In this document: positions 9,717 through 14,045 of the stretch, piece after piece | How the letters are laid out: each line of letters begins with the position of its first letter | How positions within the stretch are numbered: the first letter of the stretch is position 1 | Position numbers and translations under genes: made by a program | Notes under the pieces: model-generated | The model's input: the letters and a program-made list of their open reading frames with translations, nothing else | Database searches by the model: none | What the model was told of the DNA's origin: nothing | Origin: a phage | Direction: 5' to 3' (one strand) | Sequence record: PZ721903.1 | DNA: 49,628 nt

Positions 9717-10385
9717 ATGCACTTACCAAATGGCGCGCAAATTTTCGTGGAAACCTCTCGCGGAGAAGAGATAGAGGCGACCGCTGTCACTAACGAAAAA
9801 AATCCTGTTGCTACAGTTGCATCTAAGGGCGACTTAGCAAAAGGCGATTACGTTATTGTAACTCAGTCAACCTGGGCCAAGATGGTCAGTCGAGTGCTAA
9901 TTGTTACTGACGCTCAGGAAACAAGCATCACTCTTGCTGGGATTGACACCTCTGATACTCTTGTTTTCCCGGCTGGCGGTACGATGAGCTTTGCAAAAAT
10001 TACTGGCTGGACTGAGATTCCTTGCGTACAGGAGATTGGTCAGGACGGCGGCGAGCAGCAGTATTATACTTATCAGTGCTTGTCAGACGATAAAGAACAG
10101 CAGATCCCAACGTTTAAATCTGCGATCTCGCTAACGTACACTTTCGCGCACGAATTTGATAACCCGATCTACCAGATTCTGCGCAAGCTGGATTCGTCTG
10201 GTCAGGTAACAGCGGTTCGAATGTACGTTCCGAAAGCGAGCGAAATGCGTATGTGGGCTGGCATCTTGTCGTTTAACGATATCCCATCCACGCAGGTTAA
10301 CGAAATGGAAACGGTGGAACTCGCCGTATCCCTGAAAGGTGACTTTACTTTCATTTCCTCCACTCTGGCATCGCCTGGTGCTTAA
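9717..10385 (+). CDS. major tail protein (putative)
   Basis: 222 aa ORF directly before the G/GT chaperone pair and tape measure; followed by hairpin 10397-10413. Confidence 0.55.
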   Translation: MHLPNGAQIFVETSRGEEIEATAVTNEKNPVATVASKGDLAKGDYVIVTQSTWAKMVSRVLIVTDAQETSITLAGIDTSDTLVFPAGGTMSFAKITGWTEIPCVQEIGQDGGEQQYYTYQCLSDDKEQQIPTFKSAISLTYTFAHEFDNPIYQILRKLDSSGQVTAVRMYVPKASEMRMWAGILSFNDIPSTQVNEMETVELAVSLKGDFTFISSTLASPGA

Positions 10386-10396
10386 ATCCTATCCAT

Positions 10397-10432
10397 AGGG
10401 GGCTTGCGCCCCCTTGTTCATTTCTGTAAAAT
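10397..10432 (+). terminator. hairpin (gggggc/gccccc) followed by TGTAAAAT -10-like box
   Basis: GC hairpin after the major tail gene, weak T-run, then ctgtaaaat; box copy 10461 and RBS follow. Confidence 0.45.
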
Positions 10433-10460
10433 CATCCTATCAACTTTATTCGATTAACTT

Positions 10461-10477
10461 TTAACAAAAAGTGCTAT
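10461..10477. promoter_or_regulatory. palindromic box copy directly upstream of the chaperone RBS
   Basis: ttaacaaaaagtgctat followed by caaCCAATCAGGAGaaacatcATG. Confidence 0.6.
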
Positions 10478-10498
10478 CAACCAATCAGGAGAAACATC

Positions 10499-10816
10499 AT
10501 GGCTAAATTCAATTTCGTGTTGGGCCAACTTCCAGACTTCAAACTTCCGGTGACATTCACCATGCCAAACGGCGAGGATGCGACTATTATTTTTACAGTA
10601 CGCCACCTTTCCAGTAAAGAAGTGCAAGATATGTATGCGAAGCAGGGCGAAATGAATGATAGCGATTTCATCACTAAGATCGCGTCAGGCTGGAATCTGG
10701 AAGAAGAATTTAACGAAGAGAATGCGCGTAAACTGGTACAGTATTATCCTTCCGCAGCGTACAACCTGACGGCAACTTACATCAAGGCGCTTGCCGGACA
10801 CCGCGCAAAAAACTAA
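10499..10816 (+). CDS. tail assembly chaperone (lambda G-like)
   Basis: 105 aa acidic protein directly upstream of the tape measure; ends with slippery heptamer A AAA AAC immediately before TAA. Confidence 0.7.
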   Translation: MAKFNFVLGQLPDFKLPVTFTMPNGEDATIIFTVRHLSSKEVQDMYAKQGEMNDSDFITKIASGWNLEEEFNEENARKLVQYYPSAAYNLTATYIKALAGHRAKN

Positions 10817-11133
10817 AAAGGGCGGTTTATCTGTTATATCAGAAACCGCCGACAGAAGAGCAATTACGATCGGTTGGCCTCAGTCTTTCTGACTATGAAG
10901 ACGAGGAACCGGAAACGATAATCGGCGATACTGAAATGGTGAAGGCGTGGAATGTTTTTACGTCAATGCTCACTCAGTGGAGAAGTTCAGGCGCTGGAGC
11001 TTATGGTCTTGACTATAATGTTTTGCCTATGTTGTTCAAAATCTATAAAATAGAAGATGAAGAACTGGCATTGCAGGACGTTAGAATCATGGAAGCGAAA
11101 GCGCTTGAAATGGTTGCTAAGCAAAACAACTAA
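10499..11133 (+). CDS. tail assembly chaperone G-T fusion via programmed -1 frameshift
   Basis: The -1 frame from the slippery site at 10807-10813 is open for 107 codons to TAA 11131-11133 ([17 protein letters not shown]...MVKAWNVF...AKQNN). Confidence 0.6.
10807..10813 (+). promoter_or_regulatory. -1 ribosomal frameshift slippery site A AAA AAC
   Basis: X XXY YYZ heptamer in the zero frame, 1 codon before the G stop; conserved G/GT arrangement of siphoviruses. Confidence 0.6.
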
Positions 11134-11156
11134 GCCGCCGTTTGGCGGTTTTTTCG
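11134..11156 (+). terminator. hairpin + T-run after the G-T ORF
   Basis: ccgccgtttggcgg followed by tttttt, immediately before the tape-measure RBS. Confidence 0.55.
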
Positions 11157-11171
11157 TATATAGGGGGTTAT

Positions 11172-14045
11172 ATGGTTGATAAGGTAGCAGGTCTGTCGCT
11201 TGACGTTGATGTGTCAACAGTGCAGCGCGCCGTCAAGTCACTGAAAGAGTTTTCAAAGGCCAACGACCAGGCCGCTGATTCTATGGGTTCTTTAATCAAT
11301 GAGTCAGAGGTTGCAAAACAGAAGGCCAAAGAACACGCTGAACAACTAAGGCGCCAGAGAAAAGAGTATGAGGCCGTGGAGAAGGCAATCGATCCTACAG
11401 TATCAAAAATGGAAAGGTTGAAGATTGCATCTCAGCAGCTTGATAAACTCTGGCAGCAGGGAGTCGTTCCAGATGAGACGTTTTTCCGTTTGGGTGAAAT
11501 GCTGGATCTGCAAAACGCAAAACTTGCTCGCAGCCGGGCTATGCTTACGGAAGAAGGTCAGGCGGCATTGCAGGAAGCGAAAGCAAAAGAGCAGGCGGCA
11601 GCACGAAGCAAGGCGTTCATGGATGCCCTGAATGGTCAAGTTAACGCGATCGGCAAGACTCATGCTGAATTGATGGAACTGAAAGCGGCTGAGCTTGGTT
11701 TATCGAAAGAAGCAGCACCACTAATCGCAAAACTTAAAGATCAAGGCCGGGCTATGAATGCAGCAGGTATTAGCGCCGGGGAATACAGGCAGGCAATGCG
11801 AATGCTTCCTGCACAGATTACCGACGTCGTTACATCTCTTGCATCCGGCATGCCAGTTTGGATGGTTGCCATCCAGCAAGGCGGTCAAATCAAGGACTCG
11901 TTCGGCGGGATCAGTAATACGTTTAAAGTGTTGCTGAGTTATATTAATCCAGTCACAGCAGGGGTTGGCGTTCTCGTTGGCTCGTTAGGTCTTCTGGCGA
12001 AAGCTGGTTATGACTCTTACAAGTCAATAACTGATATTCAGAATGCGCTTATTGAGACTGGCGGTTATGCAGGTGTTACGGCTGAAGAGCTTGATTCAGT
12101 GTCTAAAAAGATCGCACAGACAAGCAACTCAACCATTGGGAGTATTCGCGATATTGTAACGGAGTTGGCGAGTTCTGGTAAGTACACCCGCGAGCAGATC
12201 CAGAACATCACTAAGGCTACCGCAGAGTGGTCAGCGTCAACAGGAAAATCAGCAAGCCAAATTATTTCTGAGTTCGACAAAATCGCAAGCGATCCGGTAA
12301 AAGGCCTGAAGAAGTTAAACGAGCAATATAATTTCCTTGAAAAAGGGCAACTTACCTATATCGATACATTAAGCCGGACGAAAGGAGAAACTGAGGCAGT
12401 ATCAGAGGCTACCAAACTATTCGCAGACGTAATGGAAAAGCGAATGAAGTCGATCGCGGATAACGCTACTCCTCTGGAAAAGATGTGGAGCGATATTAAA
12501 CAATGGGCTTCGGACGCGTGGGGATGGGTTGGTGATCATACACTCGGGGCGCTAAACCTGATTGTCGACGTTGTTCAGGGTACAGTGATTCAGGTTAAAA
12601 TGATTCTTGCGAAGGGTGATGAGTACATCTCAAACTTTATCGCCTCAGCCATAAAGGCAACTCAGTCACTACCTGGAATGAGTGATTTCGGCGCTGATGT
12701 GCTGAAGGAGCAGGAGAACATCGTAAAAAGTTCTCGCGACAACTACGACCAGTTGGCTTCAGAGCTTGATGCTATTAACGCTCGCGTAGAAAAAGGCGAG
12801 ATGGGATACGTTGAAGCGATGAAGCAGCGTCGAACTCTTGAAAAGCAGTACAGTGAGGAAACTAGGGAGGCAATAAGGAAAGAAGCAGAAGAGATCGAGA
12901 AGCGAAACCGAGAAAGAAATAAGCAGTCGAAAATTGTACGCTCACCGACAGAGCAATTCGACAAGGAGTTAATTTCACTCAAGGCTCAACTTAAGGTATT
13001 GCAGGAGCATAAGGAGATCGGTCAAAAACTTTCCGCGCAGAGAAAGGCGCTGTTTACTACCGAGGCTACGATTGCTGTTCTTCGTGAAGCCAGCTCTAAG
13101 CGTCAGTTGTCTGCGGAAGAAAAAGCGTTGCTGGCAAGTCAGGAGAGAGTTATTGAGCTTGCGAAACAGAAGGCCGAGATTGGCGATCAGATTGTTAAGC
13201 AACAACAGTTGAATGATCTTACCGATAAATCTCTGAAGTTTGTCAATGAGATGACGGCAGCTACAGAACAGCTAAACGCGTCTCGAGGGATGAGCACCCG
13301 AGAAATGGAAAGGCAAGCTGAGTTGGCTAAGATCACTACTGATTATATTAATGCAGGTGGCAGCGAAGGAGATGAAAAACTCCAGAACATGATCAAGGCA
13401 CAAAATGATTACTATGCTGCGGAAGATGCCAAGCGTTCTGACTGGTTAGCAGGTGCTGAAAGTGCATTTGCAGATTACGGCGATTCTGCAATGGATATGT
13501 ACGGCAATGTGTATGATATCGCGTCAAGTTCACTTAACGGAATGAGTGACATGATGACCCAATTCCTGACTACAGGTAAGGCAAATTTTGAGGACTTTGC
13601 GAAAAACATCATTAGCATGATTATTAAGATGATTGCTCAAATGGTAATCTTCAATACGATCTCAGGCATGATGGGCGGTAAGACGTGGAGCTTTGCTGGA
13701 GGGGTGTCGCCTGGTGCTTCTGCGGTATCACAGGCAACTCCTACGCCTGCCGTCTCTGGTTTTAGGTCTTTATCTTCAGGCGTCGCTGTTACCTCGCTTG
13801 CTGCCGCTGCGGGTAGTGTTGCAACATCTGGATTTAACGCATCTAAATCCGCACCGAAGGCAGTGAACCAATCAGCAGGCGGGACGGTCGTTGATGTTAG
13901 GGGTATGGAGGTTAAAGTTGACAACGGTTCAGATCCGAGAGGAATTTCTCAGGGCGTAGAAATGATGTTCAAAAAAATGATTCGAGAGTCTTGTTCACAG
14001 GGCGGAGAGGTTTACAATTACATTCAGGAAAAAACAGGAGGCTAA
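11172..14045 (+). CDS. tail tape measure protein
   Basis: 957 aa, long alpha-helical/coiled-coil region, Gly/Ser-rich C-terminus; start at ATG 11172 behind RBS ggggg. Confidence 0.85.

Follow-up and report, generated by a model that had tools for sequence, protein, structure and literature searches.

[quoted passage not shown]

The locus and its neighbourhood

The window, that is the whole stretch of 49,628 nt that was analysed (record PZ721903.1), comes from a Tunavirus, a T1-like E. coli siphophage (Drexlerviridae). Its first 25 kb are 99.9% identical to Escherichia phage phiD2-2, and the segment 10300-11400 shows 97-99% identity to JMPW2, SH2, SH6 and T1. The genes are ordered as major capsid gene, connector genes, major tail protein, a G/T pair, tape measure protein and distal tail genes (Table 1). 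The pair, at 10499-11133, lies between the major tail and tape measure genes, which is the position occupied by the G/GT-type chaperones of tailed phages, a class with a programmed frameshift that was reportedly defined by Xu, Hendrix and Duda in 2004.

Table 1. Features of the chaperone locus and its neighbours (positions in the window).
Feature	Position	Strand	Remarks
Major tail (tube) protein gene	9717..10385	+	T1 homologue CPTT1_037 annotated 'major tail protein'
Terminator-like GC hairpin and T-rich tail after the major tail gene	10397..10424	+	7-bp stem (6 GC pairs) 10397-10414, then TGTTCATTTC
Shine-Dalgarno AGGAG, 7 nt 5' of the G start	10487..10491	+	anti-SD duplex; corresponding ribosome binding site annotated in T1
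G-like tail assembly (tape measure) chaperone, zero-frame product, 105 aa, 11.9 kDa	10499..10816	+	ATG 10499, TAA 10814-10816
Putative GT fusion, 211 aa, 24.1 kDa	10499..11133, join 10499..10813, 10813..11133	+	computed; homologous joined CDS in T1, Solomon, LL5, Shelby
Slippery heptamer A_AAA_AAC	10807..10813	+	X_XXY_YYZ register with the G frame
T-like -1-frame extension with DUF1799 domain	10813..11133	+	106 codons and stop; PF08809
G stop TAA, abutting the heptamer; may contribute as a 'shifty stop'	10814..10816	+	position conserved, stop identity varies (TAA, TGA, TAG)
Stem-loop, candidate frameshift stimulator	10821..10850	+	7 + 4 bp, 2-nt bulge, loop of 6 nt; spacer of 7 nt from the heptamer
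Mechanical ORF of 65 aa within the T extension	10936..11133	+	weak SD; ATG unconserved; truncates the DUF1799 match
Terminator-like hairpin and T run between T and tape measure	11132..11156	+	8-bp stem 11132-11151, then TTTCGTATAT
Tape measure protein gene	11164..14045	+	likely start ATG 11164; T1 start and ribosome binding site at the homologous place

Two terminator-like hairpins, at 10397-10424 and 11132-11156, bracket the G/GT cistron. The second had been proposed in a preliminary description of this DNA as a terminator hairpin after 11133, and this was borne out: the stem occupies 11132/11135-11151 and is followed by a T run, and T1, Solomon and Shelby carry a rho-independent terminator annotation at the corresponding site. 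The mechanical list of open reading frames starts the tape measure gene at TTG 11142, within this hairpin; from the T1 annotation and a GGGGG ribosome binding site, the true start is likely to be ATG 11164. A scan of the intergenic stretch 10415-10498 returned no promoter-like site. A promoter-like TTGCCT and TAAAAT pair with a 17-nt spacer was seen on the + strand at 11023-11051, inside the T coding region and upstream of the tape measure gene, and it coincides with a dip in synonymous diversity at fusion residues 180-191 (0.15 vs a mean of 0.35), which is among the deepest.

A G-like chaperone and its extension in the -1 frame

The zero-frame product matches Pfam family PF08748 (Phage_TAC_4) with 128.2 bits and E 2.6e-37, residues 1-105 aligning with profile positions 1-124, and thereby exceeds the gathering threshold of that family (21.1 bits). 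It also matches phrog_569 and phrog_17368, and an exact-sequence look-up found the same protein deposited under the names 'tape measure chaperone' and 'tail assembly chaperone'. The predicted duplex of its start region with the anti-Shine-Dalgarno sequence has an energy of -7.4 kcal/mol, compared with -8.7 kcal/mol for the major tail gene. A single-sequence AlphaFold model of G was poor (pLDDT 47.3), and sequence and profile searches of the PDB gave chance matches only and no relative.

The -1 frame is open from 10732 to the TAA at 11131-11133, and the ORF 10936..11133 lies in this same frame. It had been claimed that the frame is open from the heptamer to 11133, and we find this to be so, with 106 codons plus the stop when counted from 10813. 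Residues 24-100 of the extension match PF08809 (DUF1799) with 46.3 bits and E 5e-12, above the gathering threshold of 26 bits, and phrog_17368 spans both parts of the locus, its first half falling on G and its second half on the extension. A search of a large protein database with the fusion returned two DUF1799 fragments only.

Many GenBank records annotate the two parts as independent genes, and the 65-aa product is recorded as a separate protein; on such a reading the DUF1799 protein would be made from a start of its own, ATG 10936 or another codon, and no frameshift would be needed. Several observations argue against it. No ATG, GTG or TTG occurs in the -1 frame between 10732 and 10936. 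At ATG 10936 itself the anti-SD duplex is negligible (-2.1 kcal/mol) and the Met is not conserved among relatives, and the DUF1799 match begins about 18 codons 5' of this codon. Searching with the extension by tblastn gave matches in 1155 phage records, and among the matches listed nearly all start at residue 1 or 5 of the extension, that is, directly after the slip site; the coding sequence conserved across families thus begins at the slip site, about 40 codons 5' of ATG 10936. Gene callers have given the T ORF ten different lengths (48, 55, 63, 65, 87, 89, 98, 99, 100 and 104 aa). Independent genes are therefore extremely improbable, and the earlier statement that 10936..11133 has no plausible independent start holds on each of these counts: weak Shine-Dalgarno, unconserved ATG, inconsistent calls and conservation that reaches to the slip site. 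What is found is a downstream ORF that overlaps the end of G in the -1 frame and lacks a functional start of its own, as in the G/GT class.

The slippery heptamer and the G stop

The G frame ends GCA AAA AAC TAA, with AAC as the last sense codon and 0 nt between heptamer and stop. The heptamer had been located correctly at 10807-10813 in the preliminary description, which set it one codon before the stop; the latter does not hold, since the heptamer abuts the TAA.

The sequence AAAAAAC is present in 19 copies in the window against 15 expected, a difference that is not significant, and we dropped the rarity of the heptamer as an argument. The six frames contain 97 ORFs of 80 aa or more. A long -1 continuation is present in 24 of them, most being plain overlaps between neighbouring genes. 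G alone among the 97 combines an in-register X_XXY_YYZ sequence near its stop with a long -1 extension, so that the G/T site stands out because the combination of features, and not the bare heptamer, is unusual in this window.

Conservation of the shift site

AAAAAAC followed by TAA is invariant in 34 loci of the T1/TLS type (Tunavirinae/Tempevirinae), where identity of the G protein goes down to 51%. We extended the comparison to 167 DUF1799 loci, collected by three single-protein scans from phages of enterobacteria, Ralstonia and Stenotrophomonas and from environmental contigs. In 119 of the 167, either A_AAA_AAC or G_GGA_AAC lies directly against the G stop, and all three stop codons (TAA, TGA, TAG) are seen; G_GGA_AAC takes the identical position in 33 related loci. 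A canonical in-register slippery sequence within the overlap is thus conserved in relatives, which is a further property of the G/GT class.

Seven kinds of codon precede AAA AAC (GAA, GTA, GCA, AGA, ACA, CAA, CGA) and all end in A, while the three kinds that precede GGA AAC (CTG, CGG, TTG) all end in G. This covariation of the wobble base with the class of heptamer keeps the heptamer and not the protein. The location of the shift is also constrained by the -1 frame. Dhillonviruses have a TGA in the -1 frame that directly precedes the heptamer, and therefore the change of frame is possible on the heptamer only; in another locus (L004) the -1 ORF overlaps G by just 28 nt. Synonymous diversity across the fusion falls to 0.17-0.24 around the site compared with a mean of 0.35, two further dips of similar depth being present elsewhere.

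Some members of the collection depart from this pattern. Most Klebsiella Weberviruses (L047, L109-L146) have GCA AAA GTT/GTC/GCC TAA in place of the full heptamer; the remnant A_AAA_G would need slippage of a single tRNA in the P site, and the curated Shelby record still annotates a frameshift product. In ten environmental loci (L162, L163, L173, L177, L178, L180, L181, L183, L185 and L179) G ends GGC ATT GGC TGA or CAG AGC TAG, a canonical heptamer is absent at the G stop, and a ...KRGN or ...EKN motif is found a few codons upstream of it. Two IMG/VR contigs (L036, L038) have premature stops in the G ORF, and the match length in L036 is not a multiple of three; these broken ORFs look like assembly errors or pseudogenes.

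The same collection bears on whether the frame is changed by the ribosome or by RNA polymerase. The site is a homopolymeric run of six A's (10807-10812), on which the polymerase could add one A, and the product predicted from such transcriptional slippage, ...AKK/LKR... (the slash marks the junction), equals the deposited T1 sequence. Six-A runs, for their part, give little slippage with E. coli RNA polymerase. The 33 loci with G_GGA_AAC have three A's only, which are unable to support polymerase slippage; since this is a classic ribosomal heptamer and has no homopolymer run, we favour ribosomal over transcriptional slippage in DUF1799 loci. The strict X_XXY_YYZ register, which includes the preceding wobble base, is a ribosomal signature, and hairpins at a spacer of 5-8 nt, described below, fit ribosomal stimulation. 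Taken with these points, transcriptional slippage at this locus is highly improbable.

A stable hairpin downstream of the heptamer

Proposed checks on the frameshift had included a search for a stimulatory structure downstream. A stable hairpin was found at 10821-10850 (-16.1 kcal/mol, z -3.8), and none of 200 shuffled sequences folds as well. It is retained in most T1/TLS relatives and is lost via synonymous changes in L028/L029/L031 and in L045. Support from covariation within this clade was not obtained: 86.5% of cells are paired vs 85.6% in shuffles, with one double change. Nor does conservation of the hairpin sequence by itself prove selection on the structure, because its arms encode conserved Ala and Pro-Pro residues.

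Other clades carry different GC-rich hairpins at a spacer of 5-8 nt, such as GGCGGCG...CGCCGCC in Dhillonviruses and GCCGCCG...CGGCGGC in environmental contigs. In order to compare folding across the collection we used the 45 nt after the heptamer from 86 unique sequences and 860 control windows from the same genes. The mean energies were -14.4 and -9.3 kcal/mol respectively, and z was below -2 in 41% of the sites vs 4% of the controls (Mann-Whitney p = 3e-11, a value that rests on phylogenetically non-independent data, since the 86 sequences share ancestry). On these folding predictions the hairpin at 10821-10850 is a probable, though unproven, stimulator.

Upstream of the heptamer no SD-like stimulator was found, the best duplex having an energy of -3.2 kcal/mol. 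A second, longer stem-loop is predicted at 10863-10925, and the region 10780-10930 folded as a whole gives a total of -43.7 kcal/mol (z -2.75).

A model for the production of G and GT

Register, protein families, synteny and conservation all support what had been proposed for this site, a -1 frameshift at A AAA AAC that yields a G-T fusion, and we consider it very probable that programmed -1 ribosomal frameshifting lets the T1-type chaperone gene give two proteins. The majority of ribosomes would translate 10499..10813 and stop at TAA 10814, yielding the 105-aa G-like chaperone. A minority would shift by -1 on A_AAA_AAC, take CTA at 10813 as the next codon and go on to 11133, and this slipped product would be the GT-like fusion with the DUF1799 domain as its C-terminal half; its computed size agrees with the roughly 24 kDa given previously. 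The slip would probably be aided by the 11-bp hairpin that starts 7 nt downstream, and a pause may be contributed by the slowly decoded stop, which follows AAC into the A site, an idea known as the 'shifty stop' (cited in PMC5009743). In our literature searches neither T1 nor any relative yielded direct evidence of the fusion at the protein level, nor did data turn up for T1-like phages on a further trait of the G/GT class, namely that short and fusion protein are produced in a set ratio, are both required in tail assembly and are both missing from the virion.

The amount of fusion is likewise a matter of prediction. A_AAA_AAC induces far less frameshifting in E. coli than does A_AAA_AAG (PMC5009743), so frameshifting may be of low efficiency here. 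A weak site would fit a small fraction of fusion, because lambda needs only a low level, its G:GT ratio being about 30:1 (PMC5009743).

As to function, we infer the roles of the proteins from position and family name only, because neither shows detectable similarity to its lambda counterpart. The lambda precedent is that G forms a coat on the tape measure protein and T brings in the tube protein. By analogy, the tape measure protein here would be coated by G and by the G part of GT, with the T part bringing in the major tail protein, and neither G nor GT would be in the virion.

The immediate contact of heptamer and stop deserves separate consideration. In published phage sets the gap between the two averages about 26-36 nt. 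The adjacency could be functional in that slow termination is coupled to the frameshift (a -1 'shifty stop'), an interpretation that we regard as unlikely. If it were true, the G:GT ratio would respond to release-factor activity and the residue at the junction (Asn vs the deposited Lys) would reveal which tRNA slips.

Which tRNA slips: the junction residue

Tandem slippage on the heptamer predicts Asn at the junction, ...R-A-K-N/L-K-R..., whereas deposited records write Lys. In the exact-sequence look-up the fusions of T1 (AAP50000.2), LL5, Stevie, Solomon and U136B all read ...AKK/LKR..., and the Asn version, ...AKN/LKR..., returned no record. In a variant of ribosomal frameshifting a single tRNA slips in the P site rather than two in tandem, and this can take two forms. 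Either tRNA-Lys slips on A_AAA before AAC is decoded, so that residue 105 is Lys, or the slip is made by tRNA-Asn, from AAC to AAA, while the stop waits in the A site, and residue 105 is Asn. The Lys at the junction of the deposited proteins speaks for P-site slippage, as does the Webervirus site, for which we take GCA AAA GTT TAA as the example: it keeps A_AAA_G alone and allows P-site slippage only. The abutting stop in 119 of 167 loci, with each of the three stop codons represented, points the same way. Against these stands the conservation of the full heptamer including YYZ = AAC, although A_AAA alone would suffice for a single slip. On balance we hold P-site slippage to be a possibility of some substance, yet doubtful.

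The junction peptide would discriminate among these forms. A peptide reading ...GHRAKNLKRAVY... would support tandem or stop-coupled slippage, and one reading ...AKK... would support Lys-first slippage in the P site or transcriptional slippage. We found no experimental determination of this residue, Asn or Lys, in the literature. The question is not one that can be asked in lambda, because G_GGA_AAG gives the same residues in both frames.

Existing annotation and what the survey adds

The G/GT frameshift is real, strongly conserved and already known. The GenBank record of T1 has a joined CDS called 'tape measure chaperone, frameshift product', joined frameshift CDS are also present in the records of Solomon, LL5 and Shelby, and the conserved frameshift is mentioned in papers on the T1-like phages Stevie (PMC4319613), Skenny (PMC6763657) and U136B (PMC8104045). 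In phiD2-2, JMPW1/2, SH2, SH6, Henu5_2 and RefSeq copies, which are the nearest relatives of the window, G and a truncated T are listed as unrelated 'hypothetical' or 'tape measure' proteins. Some RefSeq records (e.g. NC_005833.1, NC_041873.1, NC_047828.1) give one name, 'tail length tape measure protein', to G, to the truncated T and to the genuine tape measure protein, and PHROG 569, 680 and 17368 put the same misleading tape measure label on chaperones.

The practical value of the analysis lies in the correction of many Tunavirus records, which should show a single gene giving two products, after the example of the curated T1 record. To this the survey adds that sequence alone suffices to place the shift on the heptamer itself, that the heptamer abuts the stop in most loci of the collection, and that A_AAA_AAC lets one junction residue identify the slipping tRNA, which is impossible with the lambda heptamer. 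The understanding of tail assembly is unchanged by these findings.

Comparison with known systems

The closest system is the homologous locus of phage T1 (CPTT1_038 / CPTT1_039; AY216660.1, AAP50000.2), with 97% nucleotide identity and the same heptamer, stop, downstream hairpin sequence and terminator. It differs by a few amino-acid substitutions, and by the Lys that its record carries at the junction where a tandem slip predicts Asn.

A comparison with lambda G/GT had also been suggested. Gene position and the layout of the -1 frameshift proved to be alike, both systems having a chaperone pair (between V and H in lambda) with a -1 shift near the end of G and a minor fusion; the sequence families did not, since lambda G and T belong to PF06894 and PF06223 and the proteins described here to PF08748 and PF08809. 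No similarity to lambda G and T could be detected (best BLASTP E 0.59; hhalign probability 0.1% for a 20-sequence G profile against lambda G), and homology with them was rejected by BLASTP, Pfam and hhalign. Between heptamer and G stop there are 15 nt in lambda and none here, and the codon in the A site differs too, being AAG in lambda as against AAC. Some relatives within the DUF1799 family use G_GGA_AAC, compared with G_GGA_AAG in lambda.

The E. coli dnaX signal resembles the present site in its A_AAA_AAN heptamer and in a stable downstream hairpin at a short spacer (PMC5009743). The tripartite arrangement of dnaX is found here in part: the hairpin is present, but the heptamer ends in AAC instead of AAG and the upstream SD-like element of dnaX is absent. 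The outcome is also different, as the frameshift lengthens the protein here and truncates it in dnaX. Finally, likened by heptamer, the haloarchaeal siphoviruses HCTV-1, -2 and -5, which have archaeal hosts, carry tail chaperone frameshifts with the same two AAC heptamers as the DUF1799 family.
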